Shown here in pieces: positions 3 to 53,932 of a DNA stretch of 64,000 nucleotides (the first letter of the stretch is position 1; every line of letters begins with the position of its first letter). The DNA lies in NCBI GenBank assembly GCA_039802605.1, contig JBDRWW010000001.1, positions 32,001 through 96,000 on the forward strand, in the 5' to 3' direction. The notes under the pieces were generated by a model. The model did no database searches, was not told where the DNA came from, and was given only the letters and a program-made list of their open reading frames with translations. The translations under genes were made by a program, and so were the position numbers. Source of the DNA: a candidate division WOR-3 bacterium (lineage in GTDB: Bacteria; Hydrothermota; Hydrothermia; LBFQ01).

Positions 3-944
3 AGGACACTTCCAAACGCCCAAGGGTTTATAGATATGGGCTTTACACCGGAACCCGACGGTTCAACAACCAAAGAGATCTTGGAAGAAGCGGCAAACGG
101 CGATATAGATGCGCTTATAATATGGGAGGTTGAACCATTATGGGAATATCCGGACGCGGATTTGGTAAAAAAGGCCTTGGAAAACACCCCTTTTGTTGTG
201 GTTATGTCGTCTTTTTGGGATCCTTCAACGGACTACGCATCCGTTATACTTCCCATAACTACACCTTATGAGGAAGAGGGAACGAGAACCAATTTGGAAG
301 GCAGGGTTCAGTATTGTAAGGATGCCCTTTGGCCATATGAGGGTAGCAGACCCGCGTGGTGGATTTTCAAAAACATAATAAGGGGATTGGGGGGAAAGGC
401 GGATTGGGATGGTGCAAAGGATGTGTTTGAAGAGATAAAGGAAAGGGTTTTGGTCTATCACAATATAAACCCTTATAAAGTTGAATACGAAGAACTCCCA
501 TACCCGGATTATATACCAACGGTTAGAAAGTTGAAAAAGGTCTTTAAATCTCCGAAAGTTGATTATAACTTCATCCCAGCCGATGTTAGATACTTTGATG
601 GTGGTGAAGAAATCAAGGAAAGGATTCTCTTATGGGCACCGCATATATACAAGGGGAGTTATTGGGCTTTCAGAAATCCAATACAAAAACCCTATATAGA
701 CGAGGAAACGGTATTCGCGTCCCCAGAGGAGTTGGCCGAATTGGGTATAAATGACGGCGCCAGGGTTTTATTGCGCATAGGCGGAAAAGAATACGGGTTT
801 AATGTAAAGGGAGATGAAAGGATTCCCAAGGGTTTGTGGCTTTTTAAAGGTTTATTCTACGATGTAGGAATAAATGGGGTTTTAAAGGGGATATATATAG
901 GGGTGGAAGATGTTGTGGTTTCTACTGAATACGCCGTCCAATAG
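3..944 (+). CDS. Molybdopterin-oxidoreductase-fold protein (NuoG/formate dehydrogenase alpha-like), C-terminal part, truncated by window edge
   Basis: Frame is open from base 3 (PNAQGFIDMG). Motifs ASVILP..EEEGTRTNLEGRVQ and RPAWWI, plus a C-terminal dinucleotide-binding-like region. Confidence 0.75.
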   Translation, partial: RTLPNAQGFIDMGFTPEPDGSTTKEILEEAANGDIDALIIWEVEPLWEYPDADLVKKALENTPFVVVMSSFWDPSTDYASVILPITTPYEEEGTRTNLEGRVQYCKDALWPYEGSRPAWWIFKNIIRGLGGKADWDGAKDVFEEIKERVLVYHNINPYKVEYEELPYPDYIPTVRKLKKVFKSPKVDYNFIPADVRYFDGGEEIKERILLWAPHIYKGSYWAFRNPIQKPYIDEETVFASPEELAELGINDGARVLLRIGGKEYGFNVKGDERIPKGLWLFKGLFYDVGINGVLKGIYIGVEDVVVSTEYAVQ

Positions 945-1938
945 GGAAATAGACAGTTTGATAATGCTTTCGTTGGAATTCACATATAGGGAAAATTATG
1001 GTGCCGCATTATCGTTTGCCGATGAGATAATAAAAAAATATCCAAACGAACCCGATGGATATTTCTTCAAAGCCGCAATATACGATTACTATATGGAAGA
1101 CTATCATAACGATAGGTATTCCAAAGAGTTTTTTGAAAACATGAAGATTGCGGAGGAAAAGGCAAAAGCAAAACTTTTGGGGTTAAACGATAAGACGGAA
1201 AGGGCTTGGATGTACTTTTATATTGCAGGAGCAGCCGGATACAGGGCTATAAGGGCTGGTAGGGCGGGTAACTATGTCGTGGCATTAAAGTACGCCCTTG
1301 AAGGGTTAAAACCCCTTAAAAAGGCATTAGAGGAAGATTCCACGGTATATGATATATATTTCCCACTAGGTATTTACCATTACGCCCTTTCAAAATCCCC
1401 CAACAGAATAGGAGTTATACCCACTTTTTTCCTTTCAAGGGACAGAGAAGAAGACAAGGAGAAGGGTATAAGATATTTACGCATGGCATGGGAAAAGGGT
1501 CGCTATACATCCACAGTTTCCGCATTAACCTTGGCTTGGGTTTTATCACAGGAGGGGAGGAGCAAAGAGGCTATACCCATTTTAAAGGGATATGTTGAGA
1601 AATATCCAGAGAGTAGATACTTTAAATGGGTTTATGGGTATCTGCTCGTTAAGGAAGGAAGGTTTCAAGAGGCCGAGGTTATATACGACAAGCTCCTTTA
1701 CCTGGTACTCAGGGATCAACCGGATTCACCATATAACGCCGTTTATGTCAGTTATTCTTTGGGTTATGTAAAGTTTTTCTTGGGTAAGTTTGAAGAAGCG
1801 CTACACTATTTCAATGTTGCCGAACAATACTATGAGAAAGCGCCACCAAATTTAAAAGGGGAATTAAGCGATGTTATAAATATGGTAAGGAAAATGAAGG
1901 AGAGGGCAAAGAGTAGGCTGGATGAAAAATGGAAGTAG
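910..1938 (+). CDS. TPR-repeat protein, probably exported
   Basis: Helical TPR-like repeats (YPNEPDGYFFKA, LGYVKFFLGKFEEALHYF) and a short hydrophobic N-terminus MLWFLL. Confidence 0.7.
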   Translation: MLWFLLNTPSNREIDSLIMLSLEFTYRENYGAALSFADEIIKKYPNEPDGYFFKAAIYDYYMEDYHNDRYSKEFFENMKIAEEKAKAKLLGLNDKTERAWMYFYIAGAAGYRAIRAGRAGNYVVALKYALEGLKPLKKALEEDSTVYDIYFPLGIYHYALSKSPNRIGVIPTFFLSRDREEDKEKGIRYLRMAWEKGRYTSTVSALTLAWVLSQEGRSKEAIPILKGYVEKYPESRYFKWVYGYLLVKEGRFQEAEVIYDKLLYLVLRDQPDSPYNAVYVSYSLGYVKFFLGKFEEALHYFNVAEQYYEKAPPNLKGELSDVINMVRKMKERAKSRLDEKWK

Positions 1939-4720: not shown

Positions 4721-6784
4721 GAATATATCAAGGACACCCCTCTTTATGGCTATTTCGGGTATAGCCTTCACATAAATCCTTACATCGTAAACGGATATGC
4801 CGCTAAACCACGACCACCTAGCCTCCAATACCCAACAGTGTAAATCCCTCTTAACATTTAAGGTTTGATCCAAAAACCTCTTGTTTATAAAATCGTAGGT
4901 GAAATAGTAAGAAAGTGTCCAATGTTTTGTTGGACTTCCGGAAACGGTAAATTTTACCAAACTTTGGGATGGGGATATGGTATCACCAAAGGCGTAGGTA
5001 TATGTAAATCCAAAGTTCCAAGGTAAGAATTGTGGCCTGTTTATTTCCAAAACCTCCTCCTCTGTAAATGTTGTGTCCTTCTTTAATGTATCGGTTGTAT
5101 CTCTTTTGATCCCAAAACCCACAATTTCGTTTAAGGAAAATGAGCCAAAGTTTAGAATTATTTGAGTTCCAAAGGCTTTTTTATCGTAATAGTCATAATT
5201 TGTATATACGGTTGCGGTTATTTTGTTTATAGGGGTAAGGTTTGCGTTTAACCTTATGGGGGATATTTTTCCGCTATCCAAAATGTAATCCGTGAATGCC
5301 CCCCACTGTAAAAATGTCCCCTTTTTTACAACCGTATCCCTTTGAAACTTATACTCGTATGTGTTATCCAACGAAAGGGTTAAACCTTTACTCTCCATTC
5401 CCATTACCGTTTTACTCCCCCCAATATTTACACTATCACCCCTACCCTGATAAAAAAATGAAACGCCCGGTTTAACTATGTGTCTAAACTTCCTTATTGG
5501 CCCTAAACCAAAGAGGGAAACACCGTATAGGGTTGTTGATACTGGAATACTAAACCCCCAAACTTTCGCCAGGTATGTTGAATCCGTTGTTGTTGTATTC
5601 AAATATGCGGAGGGGGATAAGGAGAAGTAAAATATATTATATGTGGTTGATAAGTTATGGGATGAGTTTAACATCCTATAACCACTCCTATTACCGAGGG
5701 AATCAATGTTCTCCTGCTGAACCAAATAAAGGGAGTTGGAAAAGGAAGCGCCAAAGATGTTTAAAGGGAGCAAACCGAGATTGATTTCCGGAATTTTTCT
5801 ACTCGTAGTGTTTCTTAAAGGGTCATATCTGTTATATGCGTTTATACCCAAAAGGCCAAACTTACCCAGGCTTCTCCTTGCGGTTATGTACGAAACCAAC
5901 TCGCTTTGCACCCAATTATCCTTTACCTCCGCGTAATCTTGAATATAATACGCATCGGATACAAAATCGCCACGGGAGTTTATGTCAAAACCGAGAAGGG
6001 TTTGATTGTGTCCCCCCTTTAAACTCCACCTCCTCCTATAACCCTCATTTCCCACCAAGTCATAAGCATAAGAGAAGTTGATATTACCGTTTAGGAGTTT
6101 ATACACATTATAAACATAATCCGCGGAAAACCTAACACCCCTCTTTTCAATTATATCGGCGGATAGGGTTATATCTTGGAAGTTGTTTATAACGAGATAA
6201 AAGGAGAGGTTTCTTATATATCTTCCGTCTTGGGAACTATAACCCACGGAAGGGGGTAAAAAACCGCTTGATCTATCTTTACCCACCGGTAAGAACCAAA
6301 AAGGGGCTGCCAAAACCGGTATATCCATAATGTAGAATATCAAGGGTCTAACCACCGCCAAATCTTTCTTTATAACCCTCATCCTTGACGATACAAACCT
6401 ATAATGTGGCTCTTCCAATTCGCAGGTTGTGAAGGAACCGCTTTTTACATAAACGGAGTTTTCGGAAGTTTTATAAACCGTATCACCCTCAACCCAACCT
6501 TTTTCTATAAATGTTCTACTCTTGGCCGCTATACCGGTACCCCTGTCTATGTTATACTTTAAATAACCACCCCTGGTTTGCGATTTTCCGTCCCTAAGTA
6601 AAAAGTTTCCTTTGGCCTCAACCACATTAAGGTCTTTCCAGTACCTTATCGTATCGGCAAACAATTCAACACCCTCTGAAGTTCTAACATAGGCGCTGTC
6701 GTAAAGTATTACCAGGGCACTATCCGGGAAATACTCCAAATATCCCCCCCTAAATACAACCTCCGATATCAAAAGGTTTATCAT
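4709..6784 (-). CDS. lptD: LPS-assembly outer-membrane protein LptD
   Basis: OstA-like N-domain, [18 protein letters not shown], and C-terminal RDLHCW. Start placed at ATG 6784 (ATGA overlap with the queF stop), not 6835. Confidence 0.8.
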
Positions 6785-13551: not shown

Positions 13552-14714
13552 ACCACCCTTTTCACGAATGTCCTTCCGTTTATCAAAACCTTAACAAAAT
13601 ACACACCACTTTTAACCTCCATCCCTTGATCCGTATAGCCATCCCAATACACCTTAAAGGACTTGTTTTTAAACCCCTTATAAAGTGTTTTTAAAACCTT
13701 ACCCGTAAGGCTTATTATATAAACCTCTACGCGCGAGGGCTCGGATATGTTTAGCATAATCTCAACATTTCCCCTTCCATAAGAAACGGTTAAAACCTCA
13801 TCACCAGAAAATATATCGCGTATCCTATAATTACCATAATCGCTTACGATTACCTCAACCTCTTGGTCGTTGAACTCCACACGATATGAACCCGTATTCA
13901 CGGGAAGTATGCCAAAGGATACGGAGTTGTATAGGTTTAAATCCGCAGCGAATAGGCTTGTATTGTTAAAATGCAGGATGAAGGGGTGAGAATACGAGAA
14001 AAAGGGTTTGTTAAGGACTTGGCTGTTTATTTTATTCCTTCCAAATATAACATATACCCTATCCATATAAACGGCCAGAGAAATAAAGTTATTGCTTTGG
14101 GTGGAAAGGGAAAAGGCTTTACCAATACTTTCGCCCCCTTCAAAGAATTCATATCCTTTGCCGTTAAATGTTATATAACCCTTGGATGTTATAACGGTTG
14201 TATCCCCACAAAATATATAATCCCCGCCCCCTTTCAACACGCCCCCTTTATCCCCTATTACCGTAATCCTATTGTCCAAAAGTACAAACATACTTCTCCT
14301 TCCGCCCAACCCGCATATCGTTATATCCTTCACGCCTTCCATGAAAAGTGTTATGCTATCGTTGTGATATTTGAACAGACCGGCATCCGAGAGGAGATAA
14401 TATGACCCATTAAAGTAAAAAGTCTTTTTATATCTTCCGGTTATCGGCAGTGAAGAATCCTTTAAGGAAGGCAATTTCAAAAGTATTATGGGATTTGATG
14501 GGTCATCAGTTGTAATTACAAGGCTAAAACCTTCGGGATTATAGGATATATGTTCAACTTTTGATTTTATAGGGGTACCTATGGGATTCCCGACTAAGAG
14601 GTTATCGTATATTAACAGACCGCTATCTGTTCCCACAAAGATTTCGGAATCGCCATCACCATCCATATCTATACTGGCAACGGAATTTATACTAAGGGAT
14701 AACAACAGCAACAT
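13539..14714 (-). CDS. Exported protein with C-terminal FlgD-Ig / T9SS-CTD-like domain
   Basis: DMDGDGDSEI repeat at the N-end. C-end IISLTGKVLKTL...WDG...SGVYFVKV...KRVVWLK. Confidence 0.7.
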   Translation of the reverse strand: MLLLLSLSINSVASIDMDGDGDSEIFVGTDSGLLIYDNLLVGNPIGTPIKSKVEHISYNPEGFSLVITTDDPSNPIILLKLPSLKDSSLPITGRYKKTFYFNGSYYLLSDAGLFKYHNDSITLFMEGVKDITICGLGGRRSMFVLLDNRITVIGDKGGVLKGGGDYIFCGDTTVITSKGYITFNGKGYEFFEGGESIGKAFSLSTQSNNFISLAVYMDRVYVIFGRNKINSQVLNKPFFSYSHPFILHFNNTSLFAADLNLYNSVSFGILPVNTGSYRVEFNDQEVEVIVSDYGNYRIRDIFSGDEVLTVSYGRGNVEIMLNISEPSRVEVYIISLTGKVLKTLYKGFKNKSFKVYWDGYTDQGMEVKSGVYFVKVLINGRTFVKRVVWLK

Positions 14715-14716
14715 TT

Positions 14717-16480
14717 TTATCCACCTAGTTGCTTGATTATATCTTCCAACTGCTGCGCCTCTTTTGTTTTACCTTGTTTTCTGTAAGATTGCGCCGCCAT
14801 CTTAAAGTTGTATATTACCTGAGACTTGGCCGAACCATCCCCCTGCTCGTATTTCTTATAATATATAAGCCCCATGAACTTGTATGCATCCCCAACCTTT
14901 TCGGATGAGGGGAAACTCTGAACAAACTTTTGCAATATCCCCAAAGCGTTTTCGTAATCGTTTTTGGCGTATAGGGCCAATCCGTAAAGGTATAGAACAT
15001 TTTCTATGTCTTCCCCGTTTGGATACTTTTGAACATATTGGGAGAAGTAGTTTATCGCTTTATCGTAATCCTTTGATATGTAAGCTATGTATCCTATGCT
15101 GAACACGGCCTTTGAAGCCCTTGGGTCTTCGGGGAAGTATCTTAGAAAATCTTCAAACATTTTTGCGGCCTTTGGATATGTGCCCTGATTGTATAACGCA
15201 AGGGCATTGTTAAAGACCGCCTCCGCGCCAATTCCGGACCTTAAATATTGTGCAACTTCTGGATGTTCCGAGACCAAGGCTTGGAGAAGTTTCTTAACAT
15301 TTTCCGCGGATTGGTGCCCCGGGTATTCCAAAAGGAATCTATCCCAAGCCTCCGCCGCCCCTTTATAATCTCCCAACCTGTATTTGGCCTTGCCGAGTAA
15401 TTCAAGAACAGCGGGCATATCCTCGCCATTGGGGTATTTTTGTATGTAATATTCAAGTTTTTCAACCGCCTTTTGGAAACTACCACTTTGGAAGAGCAGT
15501 TGCCCCATATAAGCGGTAATTTTTGCAGACCTCGGATCATCGGGGAAAAACTCTATAAACCTTTCAAATCTGGCTTGGGCTTTTGTCATTTGCCCGGAAT
15601 TAAAAGCCTTCATTCCGGGATTATAAAACAAAACCTCCCCAACCAAGGGGTTGGTAATCTTTATATTCTTATTGGCCGCTATGGCTTCGCCGTATTTACC
15701 CTCAATATAGGATAGGGAGGATAAAATCGTATCCTTTAAGAGTGGATATTTTGCAAGGGCGTTTTCGTATTGAACGATTGCGGAATCGTAGTTTCCGTTT
15801 TCCGCATACCATTCGGCCAATATGATTTCCAACTTGGGTTTATTGGGGTGGCCTTTGTTTATAACATCCTTTAATGTTTGTATGGCCTTAAATAGCTCCC
15901 CATTTTTGTAATATGAAAAGACTTTTAGAATTTGGGCCTCTAATGTTTTCTCATCGCCCGGGAACCTCTTCTCCATCGTATCAACTAAGGATATGACCTC
16001 GCTATAAGAAGTGTTCATATATGCCGCCAATGCCCCAAAGTAAAGGGCATCCTTATAAACTTCCCTCCATTCGGGGTATTGGAATGCCACCTTGGAGAAA
16101 TACATATAAGCGTCTAAATACCTACGCTTGTTATAATATGCTATGCCTAAGCCCATATATACAGGTATTATGAACTTCGGATTCCTTGCACCCCTTACTT
16201 CGGCTTTTTTAAGTGTATCTATGGCTTCGGAATACCTTTCAAGGTGTATTAAGCACCACCCGTTTCCTATGAACCCTATGGTTATGTAATCGGGTATATT
16301 GGTGTTTCTTATAAGGTCTTCGTATATGCTCTTGGCCCTTTCGTAATTGCCCGAGTAGTAATACCTTTCCGCTCTGGCAACCACCTCGCCGTAATCGTTG
16401 GAATATGCGTCCGGCAAAGGCCTTTTATAATCCCGTATTACCGCGGGTATAAAGTTTTGACCTATAAATACCCATAACAT
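14717..16480 (-). CDS. Multi-TPR protein (BamD/CpoB-like repeats)
   Basis: Many TPR_6-like units (F+..+P.D/S..A..A). Confidence 0.8.
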   Translation of the reverse strand: MLWVFIGQNFIPAVIRDYKRPLPDAYSNDYGEVVARAERYYYSGNYERAKSIYEDLIRNTNIPDYITIGFIGNGWCLIHLERYSEAIDTLKKAEVRGARNPKFIIPVYMGLGIAYYNKRRYLDAYMYFSKVAFQYPEWREVYKDALYFGALAAYMNTSYSEVISLVDTMEKRFPGDEKTLEAQILKVFSYYKNGELFKAIQTLKDVINKGHPNKPKLEIILAEWYAENGNYDSAIVQYENALAKYPLLKDTILSSLSYIEGKYGEAIAANKNIKITNPLVGEVLFYNPGMKAFNSGQMTKAQARFERFIEFFPDDPRSAKITAYMGQLLFQSGSFQKAVEKLEYYIQKYPNGEDMPAVLELLGKAKYRLGDYKGAAEAWDRFLLEYPGHQSAENVKKLLQALVSEHPEVAQYLRSGIGAEAVFNNALALYNQGTYPKAAKMFEDFLRYFPEDPRASKAVFSIGYIAYISKDYDKAINYFSQYVQKYPNGEDIENVLYLYGLALYAKNDYENALGILQKFVQSFPSSEKVGDAYKFMGLIYYKKYEQGDGSAKSQVIYNFKMAAQSYRKQGKTKEAQQLEDIIKQLGG

Positions 16481-16489
16481 ACACCTTTA

Positions 16490-16537
16490 ATTCTAAGGCT
16501 GTTATTCTTCATATGGGGATACCAACAACCTTATAAT
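16490..16537. promoter_or_regulatory. Divergent -10 boxes: TAGAAT (-) 16490-16495 and TATAAT (+) 16532-16537, each 9 nt before ATG
   Basis: Recurring motif and spacing. Confidence 0.7.
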
Positions 16538-16546
16538 ATCAAGTGA

Positions 16547-19569: not shown

Positions 19570-19580
19570 AAGATATGCAA

Positions 19581-19613: not shown

Positions 19614-19621
19614 TTCCGGTT

Positions 19622-23655: not shown

Positions 23656-24336
23656 TCAGAACTCTCGTACCACCCCAAGATTTATGGTTGGGGAATTTGG
23701 TATTAAAGGCGCGGGATTTAGGAGGTTGATGTTTATAATGTTTTCCGTGCTTATTTCAATAGATGGGATACTATCGGGTTTATAAGGGTAGTTATACGGA
23801 TAGTTTTCCCCGTACGCATATGAAAATCCGATAAGGAATGTGTAGGGTTTTGAGATCTTTTTGAGGGTTATCGAAAAGGGGGTGTAGTTTGTGTTCAATT
23901 TGTATATAAGGGTATCCAAGGAAGGATTGCCGGTATTCGGATAACTGACCTTTGCATTCGGTGAAGGCGTTATACGATAATCTAAAACTATATTTTCGGG
24001 TAATATTTCTGCAAGGATTCCCCCAAGCGCGCCAAAGACGATATCCCCCAAACTAACAGGCGATGTTCTCAAAACCCTTTCCTCATAAACCTCCCAAGCA
24101 ATGGACGATACAAGGGGTATTATTACCGCACCTTTACCCCTTATATCCGTTATCCTGATAAACCAATAGTACATAAACATATGGGCGGGATAGGATTGGG
24201 TTACAAAATCCCCAAAGTCCTTTGAGGGTGGGAGTACGGCTACACCAAAATCACCCATTCCAACCCTATAAGCCTCCATCCTTTTACCGAAAGCATCCAC
24301 ATAAGTTGCCTTTTGTACGAATGCCATCCACCACAT
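23656..24336 (-). CDS. Hypothetical envelope protein (YfiM/DUF2279-like helical motif)
   Basis: H...AWEVYE...S.GDIVFGALG and terminal INLGVVREF. Confidence 0.5.
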   Translation of the reverse strand: MWWMAFVQKATYVDAFGKRMEAYRVGMGDFGVAVLPPSKDFGDFVTQSYPAHMFMYYWFIRITDIRGKGAVIIPLVSSIAWEVYEERVLRTSPVSLGDIVFGALGGILAEILPENIVLDYRITPSPNAKVSYPNTGNPSLDTLIYKLNTNYTPFSITLKKISKPYTFLIGFSYAYGENYPYNYPYKPDSIPSIEISTENIININLLNPAPLIPNSPTINLGVVREF

Positions 24337-26693: not shown

Positions 26694-26721
26694 ATTATAC
26701 TCCTGATTGATTTTTTGTCAA
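26694..26721 (-). promoter_or_regulatory. Sigma70-type promoter TTGACA-16 nt-TATAAT, 6 nt before ATG 26687
   Basis: Perfect consensus on the minus strand (TGTCAA 26716-26721 and ATTATA 26694-26699 on +). Confidence 0.85.
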
Positions 26722-29346: not shown

Positions 29347-31590
29347 ATGATATACCTTTTGGCGTATTACATAAGTGGTTATATTTATGGGGAGGATGGG
29401 AAACCCCTAGAGGCGGCAACGGTTATTCTTAAAAGATTACCGGATAGTTCAAATGCGGGCGGAACATATTCCGAAAAAGATGGTTTTTTCAAGATAATAA
29501 ATGTTCAACCGGGAAGGTATGTCTTAATAATAAAATTCGTGGGGTACGAGGATTTTTCAAGGGTGGTTGAGGTTTCGGATAGGGACGTTGATTTGGGGAG
29601 GATAGTTTTAAAGGAAAAAGCCATAAGGGTTGAGGAAGTAGAGGTAAAGGCGGAAGCACCCAAGATAACATACGAAGAGGGGAAAAGGGTTATAAGGTTT
29701 ACCGATGAAATAGTATCAAAGGGCGGTAATGCCTTAGAGGCTTTAAAGAATGTACCGGGTATAACCGTGGATAACAATGACAACATAAAAATTAGAAATT
29801 CCGAAAACATCACGCTTTATATAAACGGTAGGCCTACAATCCTGAGCCCTTCCGAGGCTTTAAGACAAATACCCGCCTCATCCATAGAAAAAATTGAAAT
29901 TATAACAAACCCATCGGCCAAATACGAGGCCGAAGGAAATGTTATAATGAATATCGTCCTTAAACAGAGCCAAGATAGGGGATTCTCCGCATCCTTAATG
30001 GGTAGGTTGGGAACTTATGATAACCTCGGCTTGAACGCATCTACGGGTATAAATACGGGTAAAACAAAAATTGTCCTAAGCGCAAACTATTTCAGTTTCA
30101 AAAGGATTATGGAAAGTGAAATAAAAGCCGAGCATCCTATAGCTTATGAGAGCGATGGAGAAAGGTACTTTAATATGAAACCTACGGGTATAAGGGGAAG
30201 TGTTGAACACCGCCTAACCAATAACGATATAGCAAATATTGAGGTGGATTTTGGTAGATGGAACTTCCTAATGGGTTGGTTGATGAATTATCCTTCCTAT
30301 AAATCGGATATGGATGTTAATATGGGAGGATTTAGGGGTTCCCTTTCGGTGGGGTATGTTAAGAAATTCCTAAAAAACCACAAGGTTGAGGGTATGGTTT
30401 TTTACGCCAAAAGGATGGGAAAGGAAAATACCGAAAGCTATTTCGGCGATTCTTTGGGTTTCAAGAGGACATCCGATATCTCAGGCAATAGGTGGAGGTT
30501 TAAACTGGACTATTCTTGGGATATAGGAGATAAGAGGAGGTTTGAGATGGGTTATCAATGGGATATTAATGAAAACTCGGATTCCCTCGTTTTTTACGAT
30601 TATAAAAACGGAAGCTTTATATTGGATACAACGGGAAATTATAGTATGAATGATGTTATAAACGCGGGCTATTTTATGTATTCAAACGCTTTGGGTATAT
30701 TCTCATACCAGTTGGGTTTGAGGGTGGAGTACGACGACAGGGTGATAAACGACGGAAATAGGGAATATCCCTTTAAATCGACGGATTTGTTCCCCTCTTT
30801 AAGTCTATCCTTCAATCCGGATATAATGAACTCTTACAGCATTACATATTCCCGTAGGATTTCAAGGCCGATGGGTTGGATGTTGGTGCCATTCCCAAGG
30901 CAAATAGATAACCTAAACTATCAAAGGGGAAACCCGAACTTAAAACCGGAATATACCCATTCCTTTGAAGCGGGTTATCAGAGGATGTTTAGACTTGGAA
31001 ACATTCAAATTGAAGGCTTTTATAAGAGGAGCGAAAACAAAATGGATTTCTATCCGTATTACGACACCTCCTTGCGTTCCATAGTATATACTTGGGAAAA
31101 TACGGGCATAGCCACACTTTCCGGTGCGGAAATATTTGTATCCTTGCAGCCATTTAAGCTTTTAAAGTTGGATTTTACGGTTGATGTCTATGATTATAGG
31201 GTGTATTACAAAGGGTTTTCAAGGAGCTTGGCCTACGACTTAAAGGGTAACCTTAGCGTAGGTTATGGCCCTATGGGTTTGCAGATAAGCGGTAGGTACA
31301 ATTCCCCGAGGGTTAGCGCAAGGGGCAAGGTCTTGGGTAGTTATGCCTTTGATATGGGTTTAAGGTTGCCTATTACAAGGAATATTTTCTTTATCGCCCA
31401 GTTTGACGATTTTATGAAATTGGACAAAGAGGTTTCTGAAATCAAAGATGAAAATTTAAAGATGACAACCACAACTTTGCGGAAATGGCCTTCAATTTCG
31501 GTTATGTTATTCTTTGATTATAACAATTTCAGAAAAATGCAACAAAGGGAGAAGAGGGAGCCCTTAGAGGAAGAGGTACCCATGTTTTGA
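29347..31590 (+). CDS. TonB-dependent receptor-like outer-membrane protein with N-terminal carboxypeptidase-regulatory-like domain
   Basis: ISG...GKPLEAATV, LKNVPGI, IEKIEIITNPSAKYEAEG plug, GNPNLKPE. Start set to ATG 29347. Confidence 0.88.
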   Translation: MIYLLAYYISGYIYGEDGKPLEAATVILKRLPDSSNAGGTYSEKDGFFKIINVQPGRYVLIIKFVGYEDFSRVVEVSDRDVDLGRIVLKEKAIRVEEVEVKAEAPKITYEEGKRVIRFTDEIVSKGGNALEALKNVPGITVDNNDNIKIRNSENITLYINGRPTILSPSEALRQIPASSIEKIEIITNPSAKYEAEGNVIMNIVLKQSQDRGFSASLMGRLGTYDNLGLNASTGINTGKTKIVLSANYFSFKRIMESEIKAEHPIAYESDGERYFNMKPTGIRGSVEHRLTNNDIANIEVDFGRWNFLMGWLMNYPSYKSDMDVNMGGFRGSLSVGYVKKFLKNHKVEGMVFYAKRMGKENTESYFGDSLGFKRTSDISGNRWRFKLDYSWDIGDKRRFEMGYQWDINENSDSLVFYDYKNGSFILDTTGNYSMNDVINAGYFMYSNALGIFSYQLGLRVEYDDRVINDGNREYPFKSTDLFPSLSLSFNPDIMNSYSITYSRRISRPMGWMLVPFPRQIDNLNYQRGNPNLKPEYTHSFEAGYQRMFRLGNIQIEGFYKRSENKMDFYPYYDTSLRSIVYTWENTGIATLSGAEIFVSLQPFKLLKLDFTVDVYDYRVYYKGFSRSLAYDLKGNLSVGYGPMGLQISGRYNSPRVSARGKVLGSYAFDMGLRLPITRNIFFIAQFDDFMKLDKEVSEIKDENLKMTTTTLRKWPSISVMLFFDYNNFRKMQQREKREPLEEEVPMF

Positions 31591-31594
31591 AAAA

Positions 31595-32188
31595 TTAAAA
31601 ACCAATATCCTTTACCCCAACCATGTAGGTGTTCCCCTTACCATCGGCAAATATCCCGTCCCTTATCAAATAAGGACCGTATTTTTTGAGGAATTCATAA
31701 CCTTTAAGGGCATCCTTACCCTTCAATATATCCTTTCCAACCAATTCCCCAAAATCGCCTATTGGTGTTGCTATTCTCCTAACATAAACCCTTTCCCAGA
31801 ATAAAACGATAACCTTAGGTTTTACTTCCCTGCCACATTTCGCATCCTTTATTGCCAGGAAAACCTCCTTTATTTTTTCGGGAAAGTTGGGAGGACCATA
31901 AACCTTTACGGTTTTTTGGAAGTTCCCCTTTTTGTATATAAAGGTAAAGAAGGGTAAGTCCGTTCCTTGCACCGAGAAATATGTATCCTGCAAATCCTTC
32001 CAATATTCCGGTTCCAAAAACTTCCCAAGGATTTTTACCTCACAAAAGGAAAAATCTTCCGTATTGAGTTTCACGCCTTTCCCATTTATGAGTTTTAAAA
32101 GGATTATCCTTGAACCCCTAAACTCCTCATAAACATCAAGAGAAAAATCAACTTGGGGAAACATTAGGGCAAAAAACATACAATACAT
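31595..32188 (-). CDS. Hypothetical protein
   Basis: ORF coupled to the upstream glycosyltransferase, host-like codon use. Confidence 0.6.
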   Translation of the reverse strand: MYCMFFALMFPQVDFSLDVYEEFRGSRIILLKLINGKGVKLNTEDFSFCEVKILGKFLEPEYWKDLQDTYFSVQGTDLPFFTFIYKKGNFQKTVKVYGPPNFPEKIKEVFLAIKDAKCGREVKPKVIVLFWERVYVRRIATPIGDFGELVGKDILKGKDALKGYEFLKKYGPYLIRDGIFADGKGNTYMVGVKDIGF

Positions 32189-32189
32189 T

Positions 32190-36680: not shown

Positions 36681-37613
36681 ATGAAGAAAGTTGCGATAAT
36701 AGGAGCCGGAAATGTTGGAAGCGAAGCCGCAAGATATTTGGCATACAAAGGCATAGCCCATATAGTCCTTTTGGATATAGTTGAGGGTATAGCAAAGGGA
36801 AAGTCGCTTGATCTATTGCACGCGGGGCCAATAGAGTGCGCAACGGTATCCATTGAGGGAACCTCCGATTATGGTCCCATTGAAAACAGCGATGTGGTTA
36901 TTATAACGGCAGGAAAGCCCAGAAAACCGGGTATGTCGAGGGAGGAACTTTTAAAGGTAAATTTTGATATTGTCAGCGGTATAGCGGAAAAGGTTAAGGA
37001 GTATGCCCCCAATTCCGTAGTTATCGTGGTATCAAACCCGCTTGATGCAATGGTATATACCACATATAAGATTACGGGTTTTCCGAGGGAAAGGGTTATG
37101 GGCATGGCAGGCTTGCTGGATTCAGCCAGGTTTGCGGCATTTATAGCCCAAGAAGTTGGAGTTTCACCGGCGGATGTTAGGGCTATGGTTATGGGAACCC
37201 ATGGGGATTTAATGGTTCCTCTTACTAGATTCACCACAATAAACGGTATTCCCGCCACTGAGTTTTTATCGGAGGATAAATTGAAGGAAATCGTTGAAAA
37301 GACGAGGTTTGCCGGTGGAGAAATAGTTAAACTTATGGGTACTAGCGCGTGGTTTGCCCCAGGAGATGCCGCCGCCTTTATGGCGGAAGCCGTATTACTC
37401 GATACCAACAGGGTTTTATCCGCATCCGTGTACTTGACCGGTGAATACGGTATAAACGGGGTATTTGTGGGTGTCCCTGTGGTTTTGGGGTGGGGAGGAG
37501 TTAAGAGGATATTGGAGGTTAAACTTACGGAAGAAGAGATGGAGGCTTTGAAGAAGAGCGCGGACCACATAAAGGAACTACAAGAACAGGTTGATGAGCT
37601 CTTGAAGGGATGA
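36681..37613 (+). CDS. mdh: Malate dehydrogenase (LDH-like)
   Basis: GAGNVG, TAGKPRKPGMSR, SNPLD, LDSARF, HGD. Start set to ATG 36681. Confidence 0.95.
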   Translation: MKKVAIIGAGNVGSEAARYLAYKGIAHIVLLDIVEGIAKGKSLDLLHAGPIECATVSIEGTSDYGPIENSDVVIITAGKPRKPGMSREELLKVNFDIVSGIAEKVKEYAPNSVVIVVSNPLDAMVYTTYKITGFPRERVMGMAGLLDSARFAAFIAQEVGVSPADVRAMVMGTHGDLMVPLTRFTTINGIPATEFLSEDKLKEIVEKTRFAGGEIVKLMGTSAWFAPGDAAAFMAEAVLLDTNRVLSASVYLTGEYGINGVFVGVPVVLGWGGVKRILEVKLTEEEMEALKKSADHIKELQEQVDELLKG

Positions 37614-38191
37614 GAAAAGCCTTAATATTTTTTGCCTTTTTAATTTCATGCGGTAAGGGTATAAACTATTCCCAAAGTTTTCCTTATGACAAGGGTTATG
37701 TTTTGTTTGACCAAAACGGGAAAGAGAGGAAGTTGGACGAATTCAAAGGGAAGGTATTGGTGGTTGGATACATATACACGCATTGTCCGGATATATGCCC
37801 ACTTATCACGGATAACATGAGGAAGATATACAAAGAGGTTTCCAAAAACGGTTGGTCTAATAAGGTTGTTTTCCTGAGTATATCCTTTGATCCGAGGAGG
37901 GATAAACCCGAAGTTTTAAATAATTATGCAAAGATATACGGCTTGGATACCGTTAAGAACTGGTTTTTCCTTACGGGGAATCCAAAAACCATAGATTCCT
38001 TAATGAAAGACCTTTCAATAGTGGTGGAGATTGGCCCTATGGAAGTTTCTGAAAGTGGGGATACAATATATTTCATTGTGCATACGGATAGGATACACAT
38101 AGTGGATAAGAGGGGAAAAATTGTTAGTTATTTTAAGGGGAGCGAAGCAAATGTTGATGATGTTATAAAGGCAATAAGGAGGGCAATATGA
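37610..38191 (+). CDS. SCO1/SenC copper chaperone lipoprotein
   Basis: Lipobox LISC, CPDIC, DPRRD, conserved His (VHT). Confidence 0.92.
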   Translation: MRKALIFFAFLISCGKGINYSQSFPYDKGYVLFDQNGKERKLDEFKGKVLVVGYIYTHCPDICPLITDNMRKIYKEVSKNGWSNKVVFLSISFDPRRDKPEVLNNYAKIYGLDTVKNWFFLTGNPKTIDSLMKDLSIVVEIGPMEVSESGDTIYFIVHTDRIHIVDKRGKIVSYFKGSEANVDDVIKAIRRAI

Positions 38192-38559
38192 TTTGGATGC
38201 TTGCGTTTATTGACATAGCGGATATTTGGGCGAGGCCGGGTATTAAGGGGGGAAACTCGGCCGTTTATATGGTCATAAGGAACAACGATACGCTTCCGGA
38301 TACGCTGTATAAAGCTTCATCGGACATAGCGGCAATGGTGGAAATACACAAGACATATAAGGACAAGAAGGGGAAAATGGGTATGGAAAGGGTTGATTAT
38401 GTGGTTATACCTCCAAAGGGAGAATTTAAACTTGAACCCGGGGGGTACCATATTATGCTTATGAAGTTGAAGAAAAACCTGCGAGGGGGTAAAAAGTTTA
38501 ACCTTTCGCTTTATTTCAAGAGGGCCGGGAAAATAGATATAACGGCTGAGGTGAAATAG
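38188..38559 (+). CDS. Copper chaperone PCu(A)C
   Basis: WAR...SAVYM, EIH...MGM, LEPGGYHIMLM. Coupled to the SCO gene. Confidence 0.92.
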   Translation: MIWMLAFIDIADIWARPGIKGGNSAVYMVIRNNDTLPDTLYKASSDIAAMVEIHKTYKDKKGKMGMERVDYVVIPPKGEFKLEPGGYHIMLMKLKKNLRGGKKFNLSLYFKRAGKIDITAEVK

Positions 38560-42370: not shown

Positions 42371-43147
42371 ATGTTCTTGCTATACCCATACATTTCCGCC
42401 TACAAGGTTGTTTATACAAAGGGTTGGGATTTAAGGGTAGGGGTTGATATAGTGGGTAATTTTTGGTATTATTCCATTCCAACATACGACCAGTACGGAT
42501 TTGCGGGTTATACCCAAACGGATTTTGGCCAAAGCATAAATTATTACTTCGGTTCAACGGATTTTTCGTATTCAAACGGCAAGTTGGCTTTCAGCGTATT
42601 TTATAATTCTATAAAACAAAACCGGCTAAACGCCTACGATGTTGATATAAATGAGAACTTTTACGGCTATGGGTTGAGTTTGGGTTATACCCCATTTAAG
42701 AACATATCAGTTGGTTTAACCGGGGAGATTTATAACGATAACAGGTTTGTAGGTTTGGAAGCTTTATTCGGATACGGTTATAACTTTTACATTGGGGGGA
42801 ATGTTCTAAGGGGATTAAGCGGTGGTATAGACTACCTTATGTTTTCGTCCGTGGCGTTAAAAGATGAGAGGTTTTCAGAGTTGAAGTTTTACTTAACAAA
42901 CAGGTATAAATCCATGGGAATATTGAGGTATGAGACATTCTTAACGAAAAATTTGCGGGTTAAATTGGGGGCGGGAGCCATATACGAAGACAGCACATAT
43001 AAACCGCTTTTTCTGGTGGGGCAGGAGATGAACCAACTCGACCGGGTCTTGGGAATTGATATAGGGGTTTATCCGAGAAGTGCGGAAATCAGGGGTGGCA
43101 GGGTTGATTGGAATGAAATAATGCTTTACATATGGCTGAAAATCTAG
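42371..43147 (+). CDS. Hypothetical protein, probable small outer-membrane beta-barrel
   Basis: Tyr/Gly-rich amphipathic strands (YGLSLGYT, LRVKLGAG) and terminal MLYIWLKI. Confidence 0.55.
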   Translation: MFLLYPYISAYKVVYTKGWDLRVGVDIVGNFWYYSIPTYDQYGFAGYTQTDFGQSINYYFGSTDFSYSNGKLAFSVFYNSIKQNRLNAYDVDINENFYGYGLSLGYTPFKNISVGLTGEIYNDNRFVGLEALFGYGYNFYIGGNVLRGLSGGIDYLMFSSVALKDERFSELKFYLTNRYKSMGILRYETFLTKNLRVKLGAGAIYEDSTYKPLFLVGQEMNQLDRVLGIDIGVYPRSAEIRGGRVDWNEIMLYIWLKI

Positions 43148-50204: not shown

Positions 50205-51982
50205 CAGTACGGTATATCCTGCAATAGTTTATCGACATTATCAACTTCATCAAGTTTTCCCAAACCGAAGTATAAAACCCTCGCCTCTTCCAATGCATCA
50301 CGGGCTTCATATGATTTACCTATTTCTTTGTATGCTATACCCAAGTACTTTAACAAATCCGCCCTCTCGGCGTCCGTAAGGTCTCCCCTGCCGAGTTCCT
50401 TTTTTAATATACTTATAGCCTGTACGGGTTTTCCATCGTAAATTAGGGAAATTGCCAAGAATAGTTTAGCCTTATTTACTTCCTCATAATTTGGATACAA
50501 ATCCACTATCTTACCAAATGTCTGTACCGCATCATCCCACATTTTGTTTTTAAAGTATATCTGGCCTGCGGTAAAGAGGGCTTCGGGTGCCTGTCTGTGC
50601 TTTGGAAATTCGCTCCCCATTTTGTAATAAAACCTCGCCGCCAAAAGTTCCCTTTTCTCGTCCAAAAGTTTCCCTCCCCAGTATATCAAAGCATCCGCCG
50701 CATCATCGCTGTTGGGGAATTCCCGTAAGAAATTCCATAGCTCAACCGTATCCTCCCTCGCTATGACATTATAAACCTGTTGTGCCCTCTGCCTCGCTAT
50801 GGAATAGAGTTCGGAATTCGGGTAATTTATGTATATCTTCCTGAGATAACTTAGGGCTGTTTTATAATCCTTTTGAGAAAAGTATATTTCCGAAAGGGTA
50901 TATAGCGCCCTTGGGGCTTCGGGATGTTGCGGAAACCTTTCAACAAACCATTCAAGCGTTTTTTTAGCCTCGTTTATCTTGTTTTGTCCCAAGTATATCG
51001 TATATGTCCTATACGCGGCCTCTCCGGCCGTTGGTAGGTTTGCATAATCCTGCATTACCTTCTGATAGTTTTGTAATGCCAAATCGTACATCCTCAAAGC
51101 CTCATAATTGAAACCCCTATAATAGTATATCAGTACATCCGTCGGCGGGTGGCCCGTTATCTGGATGTTATCAAATATATTTTTTGCCCCTTCAATATCC
51201 CCAAGGTTAAAGGTTGCTATACCCTCCGCTATTTGGGCGTGGGCCAAAGGAACACCGTTTAAGAATTCTTGGGACTGTTTTGCGTGGGATAAGGCATCGG
51301 AAAACTTTTGAGCGTATAGGTTTGCCCAAGCCGCCCCAACCCTTGAAAGGGATTTTACGAGACCATCTTGACCTTCGTTTATGTTCTTTGCGTATATTGA
51401 TTCCGCCTGTAAAAAGTGCTTACCGTAAAGGTTTGCCTCACCCGCCGCCCATATTACCCAACCCATACCTATGTTCCAAGGCCTGTTGTAATAATCCGAA
51501 AGAAATATACTCCCATAAGACCTTGCACCCTCATCATCGCCGGAATACAACAAGCCGAGAATATAATAAGTTCTAACCACATAGGAAACCTCCGGCGGAA
51601 ACCCAGAGTATTCCACAACCTCCGAGAGGGCATTTACACCCTCTTTAAACAAACCCACCCTAATTAAACCTACCCCGTATTGTGCCATCTTATTGTAGTA
51701 CTCGTCAAGTTCGGATTTACCCGGCCTTCCGGAAGACCAACCTTTTTTCTTGGGTTTTTGGGGGACATTAAAGGAATTTACGAATTTTAGGGAATCCTCA
51801 AACTTCAAGTTGAAAATCTCATTCCAACCGGGAAAGGAAGAGACCAAAGGGCCCATAGGTGGCATGTAGAAGTATAGCGGTCTTTCGTATCCGGTTATCT
51901 GGAATTCGGCCTTTCCGGTTACAACCTCTTCTTCCTCAACCGCTTGATTTCCCTCCTGAAAAATAAAAACCCACAAAAGCAT
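50204..51982 (-). CDS. Multi-TPR protein (BamD/CpoB-like repeats)
   Basis: Repeated TPR_6-like units (FP.H..AP.AL). Confidence 0.8.
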   Translation of the reverse strand: MLLWVFIFQEGNQAVEEEEVVTGKAEFQITGYERPLYFYMPPMGPLVSSFPGWNEIFNLKFEDSLKFVNSFNVPQKPKKKGWSSGRPGKSELDEYYNKMAQYGVGLIRVGLFKEGVNALSEVVEYSGFPPEVSYVVRTYYILGLLYSGDDEGARSYGSIFLSDYYNRPWNIGMGWVIWAAGEANLYGKHFLQAESIYAKNINEGQDGLVKSLSRVGAAWANLYAQKFSDALSHAKQSQEFLNGVPLAHAQIAEGIATFNLGDIEGAKNIFDNIQITGHPPTDVLIYYYRGFNYEALRMYDLALQNYQKVMQDYANLPTAGEAAYRTYTIYLGQNKINEAKKTLEWFVERFPQHPEAPRALYTLSEIYFSQKDYKTALSYLRKIYINYPNSELYSIARQRAQQVYNVIAREDTVELWNFLREFPNSDDAADALIYWGGKLLDEKRELLAARFYYKMGSEFPKHRQAPEALFTAGQIYFKNKMWDDAVQTFGKIVDLYPNYEEVNKAKLFLAISLIYDGKPVQAISILKKELGRGDLTDAERADLLKYLGIAYKEIGKSYEARDALEEARVLYFGLGKLDEVDNVDKLLQDIPY

Positions 51983-51990: not shown

Positions 51991-52065
51991 ATTATACTCC
52001 CGGTATATTCCCCATAAATGCCCGTCCCGGACCTTTCAAACCATTTATTTCTCCAACCTTAGAAT
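51991..52065. promoter_or_regulatory. Divergent -10 boxes TATAAT (-) 51991-51996 and TAGAAT (+) 52060-52065, each 8 nt before ATG
   Basis: Recurring motif and spacing. Confidence 0.7.
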
Positions 52066-52073: not shown

Positions 52074-52784
52074 ATGAACCCGCGTTTTAAAAGGATTCTA
52101 TTGAAGTTAAGCGGTGGAATATTGGCGGGAGAAATGGGTTTTGGCATTGACCCAAAGACTTTAAACAGGTTGGCGGATGAGATAGTTGAGGTTTATAACC
52201 GTGGTGTGGAAGTGGCCATTGTGGTCGGCGGTGGAAATATCCTAAGGGGTACCCAGAGTTCCCATTTGGGAATAGATAGGGTAACGGCCGATTATATGGG
52301 TATGCTTGCGACTATACTAAATGCACTGGCTCTTCAAAGCGTTATTGAGCAAAGGGGTGTTCAAACTAGGGTAATGAGCGCCTTAACGGTTTCACAGGTT
52401 GCGGAACCATATATAAGGAGAAGGGCAATAAGACACCTTGAAAAGGGGAGAATTGTAATATTTGCGGGTGGTACGGGTAATCCCTTCTTTTCGACGGATT
52501 CGGCCGCGGCTTTAAGGGCATCGGAAATAAATGCGGATGTTATATTAAAGGGTACAAGGGTTGATGGGGTATATACCTCCGATCCCGAAAAGGACCCAGA
52601 CGCAAAGAGGTTAGACAAATTAACATATCAGGATTTTATCGTTAACGATTTAAAGGTTTTGGATACATCGGCGATAGACATAGCAAGGCAAAGGGGAATC
52701 CCCATAATAGTGTTTAACATAACAAAGGCCGGGCAATTGATAAGGGTTCTAACGGAAGAAGGCGTTGGCACATATATCGGATGA
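52074..52784 (+). CDS. pyrH: UMP kinase
   Basis: LLKLSG, VGGGN, DYMGMLAT, GTGNPFFSTD, VDGVY..DP. Confidence 0.97.
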   Translation: MNPRFKRILLKLSGGILAGEMGFGIDPKTLNRLADEIVEVYNRGVEVAIVVGGGNILRGTQSSHLGIDRVTADYMGMLATILNALALQSVIEQRGVQTRVMSALTVSQVAEPYIRRRAIRHLEKGRIVIFAGGTGNPFFSTDSAAALRASEINADVILKGTRVDGVYTSDPEKDPDAKRLDKLTYQDFIVNDLKVLDTSAIDIARQRGIPIIVFNITKAGQLIRVLTEEGVGTYIG

Positions 52785-53932
52785 TAATACCAATAAGCAC
52801 CTGTGGTTGGTATAGTGCAACCTATGGGGAGGGGTGGGGGTGTTGCATGGATTTCCAGCCGCATTTAATGGATACATGTGGTGGAAAACTGTATATTTTT
52901 TATCATTCCGCATGCGATGGAAAGGGTGTTTATATGAAGTTTTACGATGGTTTTTCTTGGAGCGATTATTTAAAGGTTTCAAACACACACGGGAGCGAAA
53001 GCAACTTTTATTGCTGGGGTGATACGCTGGTTTTAATGTATTACGGGTGGGGTGATTCGGTTATATACAGGGCTATATCCTACGATGGGGGGTTAACTTG
53101 GGCAAAGGAAGTATTTGCCGAAAACCCTTTATACAAAGAGGATGAGCCGTATGTTTATAAAATAGGCGATACGGTTTATTACACATACATTTACGAAATT
53201 GAGGGTAGTAGAATAAGGGTTAAAAGGGAATACCCAAGCGGTTCGGATAGCCTGATATTAAACTTTCCCTTACCCTTCGCGCTACACAACGGGAAGTTAA
53301 TCCACCTTGATACTTTAAGGTTTATAGCCGCAACCGGTTGTAATGGCAACGGTATATTTTTAATAAAAATCCATCCCCGTGGATACGAAATCCTGGAATT
53401 GATGGATACATCTTATTATTCCGCCGACATTGAGGTTTTCGGTGATAGCGTTTTCGTTTTGGGCTCGGGGCCAGGTTTTGTGCGCTTATGCTATTCTTAC
53501 AACAGGGGTGAAACCTTTTTATGTACGGATGTTGCGTTGGTTTCGGGTATAGTATCAAATGTCGAACTCGTATTAACCCCTTATGGAAAGTTTGCCATAT
53601 GGTCGGATAGTTTAACAAAATTCTCAACAAAAATTTACAGGTCTTTGGATAACGAAAATTGGCAACCTTATGATAGCATATATTCAAGCGGAAACGAGAA
53701 ATTCCCCGTTGCCATATGGAACAACGGTTTAAACATTCTTTGGACTAGCGATAGGAACGGGAAATATGAGGTTTATTTTGCGGTATTGGGGGTAAGCGGT
53801 ATGGATGAAAAAATCGGATGTGTTGATGAGGGAAGGTTCTACAATGTTTTGGGTAGGAGGGTTGATAAAAATTACAGGGGTATTGTCTTTGAGGTTAAGT
53901 GTAAATCCGTAAAAAAACATATTCGGCGGTAG
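52781..53932 (+). CDS. BNR/Asp-box beta-propeller protein with T9SS-CTD-like tail
   Basis: SYDGGLTW, SYNRGETF, SLDNENW. Tail FYNVLGRRV...GIVF. Confidence 0.65.
   Translation: MIIPISTCGWYSATYGEGWGCCMDFQPHLMDTCGGKLYIFYHSACDGKGVYMKFYDGFSWSDYLKVSNTHGSESNFYCWGDTLVLMYYGWGDSVIYRAISYDGGLTWAKEVFAENPLYKEDEPYVYKIGDTVYYTYIYEIEGSRIRVKREYPSGSDSLILNFPLPFALHNGKLIHLDTLRFIAATGCNGNGIFLIKIHPRGYEILELMDTSYYSADIEVFGDSVFVLGSGPGFVRLCYSYNRGETFLCTDVALVSGIVSNVELVLTPYGKFAIWSDSLTKFSTKIYRSLDNENWQPYDSIYSSGNEKFPVAIWNNGLNILWTSDRNGKYEVYFAVLGVSGMDEKIGCVDEGRFYNVLGRRVDKNYRGIVFEVKCKSVKKHIRR

Follow-up and report, generated by a model that had tools for sequence, protein, structure and literature searches.

Extremely short, charge-free N-termini as putative Sec-type export signals in Caldipriscus-related WOR-3 bacteria

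Classical Sec signal peptides that are removed by signal peptidase I (SPI) consist of n-, h- and c-regions and are about 18–30 residues long, with an h-region of usually 7–15 residues. Signal peptides and the signal recognition particle (SRP) are textbook near-universals, and prediction tools and gating models presuppose that the n-region is basic and that the h-region has about 7–8 residues or more. A Q-rule has been described for Bacteroidetes, in which most SPI substrates carry Gln at position +1 (PMC5837995, PMC10653852). Suppressors of the prl type (prlA/SecY, sec61) accept shortened or defective signals when residues of the pore ring, plug or lateral gate destabilise the closed channel (PMC3164448, PMC2585858, PMC2171872). 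The present analysis concerns a 64,000-nucleotide stretch of DNA from a candidate division WOR-3 bacterium (assembly GCA_039802605.1, contig JBDRWW010000001.1, positions 32,001 to 96,000), here called the window, in which 12 predicted envelope proteins had been noted to begin with a few uncharged hydrophobic residues. These short N-termini are probably real Sec-type export signals that have been shortened to an extreme degree. Within the reach of sequence analysis, the cargo families, domain starts, a series of SurA orthologues and the order-wide spread support the original prediction of a minimal, undescribed signal.

The genome holding the window (G000; the window is C1:32001-96000) comprises 1.65 Mb in 23 contigs, has 41% GC and is 90% complete. 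A simple longest-open-reading-frame (ORF), non-overlap caller yielded 1319 genes that begin at a first ATG and encode 80 residues or more. A start was classed as a mini-signal when Met was followed by 5–10 uncharged residues (at least four of the first five strongly hydrophobic) and then by a polar residue and a polar stretch, and as canonical when a Lys/Arg n-region preceded 10–20 uncharged residues. Mini-signals were found in 123 of the 1319 genes, 116 of them outside the window, and canonical signals in 98. Met followed by five hydrophobic residues occurred at 71 of 1610 first ATGs (4.4%) versus 93 of 8146 internal Met codons (1.1%). Hydrophobic runs counted from residue 1 had a sharp maximum at lengths of 7–9 (18, 31, 32, 25, 12, 11 and 6 runs for lengths 6–12), and the first polar residue in the mini class was found at positions 7–12, with the mode at 8–9. 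This leaves a hydrophobic stretch of about 5–7 residues after Met, at the accepted lower limit or under it. Lys and Arg, and hence a twin-arginine motif, are missing from the run by definition of the class, and the measured part is the frequency of charge-free starts.

The composition of the class is far from random. Against a background of 1.3% per residue, Trp was present at positions 2–4 in 38 of 123 mini genes, and 28% had it at position 3. The first polar residue was Gln in 35 genes, Asp in 24, Pro in 22, Asn in 15, Glu in 15, Lys in 8 and Arg in 4; Gln (28%) is therefore 5.6-fold enriched over the 5% expected among polar residues, whereas Lys or Arg were found in 12 of 123 genes versus 34% expected. 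A small residue precedes Gln in 23 of the 35 Gln genes, and the canonical signals of the same genome frequently finish in AQ. A mini-signal thus consists of Met, about 5–7 strongly hydrophobic residues (often with Trp3), no basic n-region, often a small residue, and a polar non-basic residue. The M-x-W...Q motif that had been proposed for the window is present but covers a subset, and the general pattern is Met, about six hydrophobic residues and a polar non-basic residue. The over-representation of Gln after the signal, also seen in the many canonical signals that end in AQ, resembles the Bacteroidetes Q-rule; unlike there, Gln is in the minority, the plant-type glutaminyl cyclase PF05096 was not found, and the mini-signals are less than half as long. 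Trp is also found directly behind basic residues (M-R-W, K-R-W) in 11 of the 98 canonical signals, for example at C1:206997 and C17:16349. This agrees with the Trp3 preference of the mini-signals and indicates that Trp at the beginning of the h-region may have a function throughout the lineage.

Canonical signals have not disappeared from this genome. A lipobox was present in 34 of the 98, and lipoproteins carry full-length signals of the type M-[KR]-...-L-x-x-C, whereas an early Cys (residues 5–13) was found in at most 9 of 123 mini genes, which points to a shortening specific to SPI-type cargo. The view that short starts replace normal signals consequently holds for most SPI-type cargo, but normal signals coexist with them, mainly on lipoproteins.

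To characterise the cargo, 70 mini genes were picked, solely by clustering density, from the 116 outside the window and scanned with Pfam; 45 had matches at E≤1e-5. Of these, 24 were unambiguous envelope proteins, 14 were probable or ambiguous, five were integral inner-membrane proteins and two were cytoplasmic or membrane-associated (YidD, DUF503). The 24 envelope carriers comprise SurA, BamA, a second Omp85, a TolC-like OEP, LolA, LolA_like, a DsbA-like protein and cytochrome c, further two amidases, SLT, M23, a trypsin-like protease, two S8, M14 and two C25 proteins, and finally Plug, CarbopepD_reg, OmpA-PD40, SLBB, GSDH and Big_5 with a C-terminal domain (CTD). A check on whether the motif is carried by cytoplasmic proteins accordingly favoured export, with 24 of 45 annotated carriers from textbook envelope families and two of 45 cytoplasmic or membrane-associated. 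The CTD of the type IX secretion system (T9SS) gave 19 matches in the genome, 11 of them over the cut-off; six of these 11 proteins have a strict mini-signal, three a short uncharged start outside the rule (one with an ambiguous start) and two a canonical signal. Among seven Plug proteins over the cut-off, three starts were strict, three short or ambiguous and one canonical. In mini proteins, domain models begin at residues 9–13 (PCuAC 10, CarbopepD_reg 9–12, SurA_N 12, OEP 13, POTRA 10, cytochrome c 12) and leave no space for a normal signal. Alignment with homologues, which had been proposed as a check, thus places mature domains directly after the short N-terminus, and the mature start of SurA is kept across the phylum.

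SurA also clarified the identity of the organism, as its SurA-like protein is 71% identical to those of two Candidatus Caldipriscus records. The organism is therefore a Caldipriscus relative (WOR-3/'Pyropristinus') and not a member of the Bacteroidota. A habitat of 82–84 °C is given for Caldipriscus (PMC11696919). A mature start of the type D-[RK]-[IV]-x-A-[IV]-V-G was kept in 20 of 21 genomes read, the remaining one (G012) having no readable start, and the peptide that precedes it varies in length across the phylum. It comprises 22–25 residues including basic ones in G061, G076 and G046, 16–18 residues in G020, G024, G023 and G031, 16–18 uncharged residues in G043 and G084, and 10–14 mostly uncharged residues in G027, G019, G055, G049 and G047. 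In six of the seven genomes of the Caldipriscus order (families f1 and f2, with the genome studied here included) it is down to 7–8 residues, the seventh being the unreadable G012; the mini-signals there are MILMLLSQ, MFLSFVMQ, MLLLLTVQ, MLLLLAVQ, MLFIFLFS and MIFLLLQ. Homologues of a window FG-GAP propeller protein (25182-26687) in other genomes have a hydrophobic start of 7–14 residues that runs straight into Gln in 17 of 18 readable N-termini. In both the SurA and the FG-GAP series, the hydrophobic part varies freely while Gln is kept, as expected of a removable signal.

Samples of 3–168 genes from relatives, which are not independent of each other, were used to trace the mini class further. 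Its share was 8–12% in the order (123/1319 in G000, 8/65 in G010 of the same family, and 10/84 in G017 and 14/168 in G012 of the same order). Counts were 2/73, 2/76, 4/70, 0/76, 0/43 and 0/3 in other orders of the class, 0/71, 3/90, 3/69 and 1/7 in other classes and 1/36 in Escherichia coli. The extreme short form is a trait of the whole Caldipriscus order. Uncharged signals of 10–14 residues were found more widely in the phylum, and the loss of the n-region seems to be older and wider than the extreme shortening. Uncharged signals of 12–14 residues were also seen on TonB-type receptors (L034, L036, L040, L046, L051) and SurA (L219, L224) in the SRP-bearing families f18, f22, f27 and f14. The 30 top-scoring CarbopepD_reg receptor loci across the phylum were skewed to one orthologue group with normal signals and were excluded from the prevalence estimates.

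The genome encodes SecY, SecA (43% identity to E. coli), YidC, one LepB and LspA. LepB is present as a single copy of ordinary build, and SecB (PF02556) had no match in the genome. SecY (C2:107416-108426) was aligned with the sequences from the order and phylum (loci L113-L131; 19 phylum sequences plus E. coli). Six genomes of the order stand apart from the remaining 13 phylum sequences at just four columns: one near the N-terminus, two in loop C4 that correspond to E. coli R255 and R256, and one in loop C5 (position 361). Degeneration of the C4 motif GR[RK]xYGGQ is confined to the order (GLSP-TAQ in f1, GKAVVGGQ in genus 4 of f2, GRGVVGGQ in G012), where one or both of the Arg255/Arg256 equivalents are lost and f1 has an additional one-residue deletion; six of the seven genomes have also lost the Lys at position 361. 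At pore-ring position 187 (E. coli numbering), every one of the seven genomes of the order carries Ala or Ser; nine of the 12 sequences outside the order have Ile there, and the other three are G019 (Ala), G084 (Thr) and G031 (Val). In E. coli, I187 is part of the isoleucine pore ring, at other residues of which prlA mutations have been described (PMC2171872), polar pore-ring substitutions let signal-shortened precursors pass (PMC3164448), and R255 and R256 contact the ribosome, FtsY and SecA (PMC3575545). Ala or Ser at position 187 makes the SecY of the order resemble prl translocons. In contrast to laboratory prl mutants, which rescue single reporters, a whole natural secretome would depend on the altered channel here, if the putative causal link holds. 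We know of no prl phenotype of I187A or I187S.

Components of the SRP pathway were not detected. In the genome holding the window, the Ffh M domain (PF02978) gave no match at E≤10, the SRP54 GTPase domain (PF00448) gave one P-loop match of 20.8 bits that was under the cut-off, SRP RNA (RF00169, RF01854) gave no match, and Ffh and FtsY sequences from within the phylum, used as tblastn queries, had a best E value of 0.095. Searches for Ffh and FtsY were negative in all 14 genomes of the class (this one plus 13), one of which is 100% complete with three contigs; a single partial match of 28.5 bits was found in G019, one of the 14. Both proteins are present in G061, G046 and G055. Across the phylum, the Ffh M domain was found in 104 of 201 genomes and in none of those of 19 named families; by family, counts were 0/10 in f1, 0/7 in f2, 0/8 in f4 and 0/8 in f24, and 17/19, 17/20 and 10/10 in others. 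In G047 and G084 the only strong SRP54-type GTPase (L199 and L200, respectively; G047 also had a weak 27-bit match) is one that we take from its N-terminus to be FlhF-like, not Ffh or FtsY, and the families of these two genomes may lack SRP as well.

SRP has been described as conserved in all organisms (PMC7844537). A text search of the literature found no description of its absence in WOR-3, and natural SRP loss in free-living diderm bacteria seems not yet to have been described. Suppressor strains of E. coli with a deleted SRP (10.1101/2021.01.06.425660) and most mitochondria (PMC8321541) likewise do without it. Unlike these laboratory strains and organelles, the present cases are free-living diderms with genomes of 1.5–2.3 Mb from at least 19 families. 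An absence of Ffh, FtsY and SRP RNA on this scale is unexpected in free-living bacteria and makes it possible to compare what SRP is indispensable for. Regarding the adapted machinery that had been suggested, the missing Ffh, FtsY and SRP RNA and the changes at SecY 187 and in loop C4 fit the proposal, whereas SPI, which has no lineage-specific column, does not.

Taken together, the best explanation is that, in the Caldipriscus order, mini-signals serve most SPI-type proteins of the periplasm, the outer membrane and the T9SS, and they are best read as an extreme new variant of Sec signals that is tied to an unusual, SRP-less export apparatus. With classical Sec/SPI signals they share the N-terminal position, hydrophobicity, envelope or secreted cargo, a variable sequence with conserved hydrophobicity and a polar mature start. 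Further, genes of a SecYEG-type translocon (SecY, SecA) and LepB are present, and mini-signals grade into normal ones on the same orthologues. They differ in lacking a basic n-region, in an h-region of about 5–7 and a total length of 7–9 residues, in the common Trp at position 3 and in a small −1 residue in about half of the cases. Very short or minimal signals were not described for WOR-3 in the literature found by text search, and the main texts of the Caldipriscus/WOR-3 papers examined never use the term 'signal peptide'.

Sec export and cleavage, as well as a causal role of the SecY changes or of SRP loss, are what we infer from these data. Mini-signals are probably remnants of ordinary signal peptides that have lost their n-region and the greater part of their h-region. 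Where SRP and FtsY do not sort hydrophobic signals, precursors would reach SecYEG via SecA. Met aminopeptidase leaves Met in place when residue 2 is bulky; Met is thus probably retained, and the free N-terminus together with an interfacial Trp might replace the basic n-region. A more easily opened SecY, that is a natural prl-like allele, would allow a very short hydrophobic stretch to trigger translocation, with the pore-ring change from Ile187 to Ala/Ser and the altered C4 loop as candidate gating changes. LepB would probably cut before the polar residue, and an exposed Gln could cyclise to pyroglutamate, a reaction to which N-terminal Gln is readily prone near 80 °C. Lipoproteins plausibly keep long signals since membrane anchoring is needed until lipidation. 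On the wider proposition, that an order of hyperthermophilic diderms carries out most periplasmic, outer-membrane and T9SS export (BamA, SurA, LolA and LptD included) by charge-free signals of 7–9 residues and dispenses with SRP, FtsY and SRP RNA, we would not lean to either side. If true, this would represent a natural 'prl-like' SecYEG/SecA system with a gating threshold and targeting logic unlike those of any model studied so far. The lower bound of a Sec signal would move down and the minimal information that it needs would have to be redefined. A possible under-prediction of secretomes in such genomes would be explained, and the lineage would offer a natural experiment on re-tuned SecY gating, SecA recognition and signal peptidase geometry near 80 °C, as well as very short export tags for biotechnology.

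Several observations weigh against mini-signals as cleaved Sec signals that depend on an adapted apparatus. To our knowledge, an h-region of 5–7 residues is below any known to work, and as a helix it is too short for half a bilayer. A small residue precedes the first polar residue in just 56 of 123 mini genes, so that many sites misfit the SPI rule. No LepB column separates the order from the rest among 18 aligned sequences (of which the one from G023 was a wrongly picked ORF), and the plant-type glutaminyl cyclase PF05096 had no match in the 90%-complete genome, the M28 type not having been searched for. The SecY differences mark one clade and thus one evolutionary event; the correlation has no statistical weight and the columns are leads only. 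Moreover, G019 has Ala187 yet fewer mini genes, and G027 has Ile187 yet a SurA signal of 10 residues. SRP loss spreads far beyond the mini-signals and hence cannot be their sole cause. Both the gene caller and the class rules are crude, seven of 45 annotated mini proteins were false positives (inner-membrane or cytoplasmic), and two raw-read metatranscriptomes gave no reads on window positions 14001-34000. Two older RNA runs comprised short contigs only, which are unable to show transcription starts.

Some of these points would suit an uncut export aid, in which SecA reads the mature domains and the 6–7 residues remain as a small membrane-interacting tag. The low count of small residues before the first polar residue and the unremarkable LepB agree with this idea, as does a hydrophobic run that is too short for the usual SPI geometry. 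It is nevertheless an unlikely explanation, because Gln is found at 35 of 123 sites versus 5% expected, with a small residue before it in 23 of 35, which fits the AQ ends of the canonical signals, and because the SurA and FG-GAP series vary in the hydrophobic part but keep Gln.

Much less probable is a route other than SecYEG, with YidC alone or a lineage-specific translocase reading an M-x-W-hydrophobic tag. SRP was not found, the partner-binding loops of SecY are altered, and the Trp preference (38/123) hints at specific recognition. On the other hand, SecY, SecA, YidC and LepB are present and conserved, mini-signals and ordinary Sec signals form a continuum across the phylum, and no candidate for a new machine was seen, though none was searched for.

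The possibility that the proteins begin upstream, by non-canonical starts, readthrough, frameshifting or assembly error, and carry normal signals is slighter still. In its favour, two of the 12 window genes (6784 and 29347) have an upstream in-frame TTG that would add basic residues. Among the 123 mini genes, by contrast, 64 have a stop within five codons 5' of the start, 52 have TAnAAT 5–9 nt 5' and 26 a Shine-Dalgarno-like site, and 99 have at least one of these indicators. TAnAAT at this distance was found before 52/123 mini, 29/98 canonical and 304/1098 other genes (385/1319 in total); since the box (approximately CCTTAnAAT) stands at like spacing before all gene classes, it is a general promoter −10 element, and its position implies frequent leaderless mRNAs in the lineage, as predicted from sequence. 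Operon-internal mini genes have GGAGGTG 5–7 nt 5' of the start instead of a −10 box. For SurA, the open frame has 410 codons for a protein of 409 residues in four genomes of family f1, and three additional named records, of which two are Caldipriscus, have the same stop one codon before the ATG; in two named Caldipriscus assemblies, GGAGGTGA abuts the ATG and its TGA is this in-frame stop. This very short open frame recurs across independent assemblies, Shine-Dalgarno sites or −10 boxes indicate the same ATG, and the triplets 5' of the ATG look like a promoter and not like a basic n-region. Upstream starts are therefore largely refuted, and the start positions of the mini genes appear correct as far as can be told from such signals. 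An alternative genetic code or readthrough was rejected, as several different stops were found upstream.

The weakest alternative, a compositional or heuristic artefact in which hydrophobic starts are general to all proteins or the carriers are cytoplasmic, could draw on the noise of a looser metric (377 of 1319 genes flagged) and on the seven of 45 inner-membrane or cytoplasmic proteins, but is refuted by the fourfold enrichment over internal Met, the run length sharply peaked at 7–9, at least 24 textbook envelope proteins among 45 annotated carriers and a mini share of 0–6% in the genomes sampled outside the order, with 1/7 in a seven-gene sample as the exception.

Other classes of N-terminal signals were considered and rejected. 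Type IV pilin (class III) leaders, which are processing signals, are likewise short and N-terminal; they are polar or basic, are followed by a retained hydrophobic helix of about 20 residues and are cut by prepilin peptidase. The carriers of mini-signals are ordinary soluble or barrel proteins that have no such helix. A lipoprotein (signal peptidase II) reading was discarded as Cys at residues 5–13 occurs in just nine of 123 mini genes, and a Tat reading as the strict class has, by definition, no Arg before the first polar residue. Two cruder measures were also set aside. A DNA-pattern proxy (ATG NTN TGG NTN NTN NTN etc.) had 40 matches in the genome versus 6–18 in controls and was dropped because transmembrane segments blur the signal. 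The looser 'signal-like' length metric mentioned above was too permissive; its medians (10–12 in the order versus 12–18.5 elsewhere) agree in direction.

Within the window, all 12 N-termini of the original prediction were re-read and found as described, with Trp at positions 2–4 in six and Gln at positions 8–9 in four. The strict rule applies to seven of the 12, and about three are weak members while the rest stand. Their starts had been considered fixed by upstream signals. This is mostly the case, with an in-frame stop 1–4 codons 5' of the ATG at 910, 16480, 24336, 32188 and 51982, a TAnAAT box 6–9 nt 5' at 16480, 24336, 26687, 29347, 42371 and 51982, and a Shine-Dalgarno-like site at 910, 6784, 14714 and 38188; the upstream TTG alternatives at 6784 and 29347 are the exceptions.

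Five of these genes encode LptD, a receptor, a copper chaperone and two FG-GAP proteins. The putative mini-signal MINLLISE of LptD (gene 4709-6784; LptD_2, E=1.2e-30) lies at 6761..6784 on the minus strand behind an AGGGAG site; its ATG (6784) overlaps the 3' end of the preceding ORF, and an in-frame TTG at 6835, 17 codons 5', may be an alternative start. MIYLLAYY (29347..29370, plus strand) opens a TonB-dependent-type receptor (gene 29347-31590) with outer membrane protein barrel, Plug and CarbopepD_reg matches, in which CarbopepD_reg_2 runs from residue 9, equal to profile position 1. An alternative TTG lies in frame at 29308, and the ATG is favoured because a CCTTAAAAT box is located 7 nt before it. 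MIWMLAFID (38188..38214, plus strand) belongs to the periplasmic copper chaperone PCuAC (gene 38188-38559; E=4.4e-33), with AAGGAGG 5 nt 5'; profile positions 1-108 of 109 correspond to residues 10-117. In contrast, the adjoining SCO1/SenC gene starts with a normal lipoprotein signal, MRKALIFFAFLISC (37610..37651, plus strand; assigned by sequence and Pfam). The FG-GAP/PQQ beta-propeller protein (Pfam; gene 25182-26687) carries MIWVIFAQ (26664..26687, minus strand). A sigma-70-type promoter (TTGACA, 16 nt, TATAAT; 26694..26721, minus strand) ends 6 nt before its ATG, which implies a leaderless mRNA. MLLLLSLS (14691..14714, minus strand) starts an FG-GAP/FlgD_ig protein (gene 13539-14714) with a GGTGGA Shine-Dalgarno-like site, 18 open codons 5' of the ATG and a weak T9SS CTD match (18.6 bits).

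Three further carriers are TPR proteins. MLWVFIGQ (16457..16480, minus strand) belongs to a TPR/YfiO(BamD)-like protein (gene 14717-16480; YfiO, E=3.9e-32), with a stop two codons 5' and CCTTAGAAT 9 nt before the ATG. MLLWVFIFQ (51956..51982, minus strand) belongs to another TPR/YfiO-like protein (gene 50204-51982), with a stop three codons 5' and TATAAT (51991-51996) 8 nt before the ATG. MLWFLLNT (910..933, plus strand) starts the product of gene 910-1938, with a stop three codons 5' and a GGGGTGG Shine-Dalgarno-like site; TPR is its sole Pfam match, which makes an envelope location putative.

The remaining four have no clear family. MWWMAFVQ (gene 23656-24336; 24313..24336, minus strand) is preceded by a stop one codon 5' and by CATAAAAT 7 nt before the ATG. 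The product of gene 31595-32188 has a 12-residue uncharged start, MYCMFFALMFPQ (32153..32188, minus strand), a stop four codons 5' and a weak DUF6438 match as its sole Pfam hit. MFLLYPYISA (gene 42371-43147; 42371..42400, plus strand; GGTAAAAT 9 nt before the ATG) and MIIPIS (gene 52781-53932; 52781..52798, plus strand) both have Pro within the hydrophobic run and no Pfam family, and count as weak members; MIIPIS, which has no clear start signal, is the weakest. At E≤0.01, three ORFs were left without a Pfam family, namely 21499-23655 (minus strand, 718 residues), 42371-43147 (plus strand, 258 residues) and 52781-53932 (plus strand, 383 residues).

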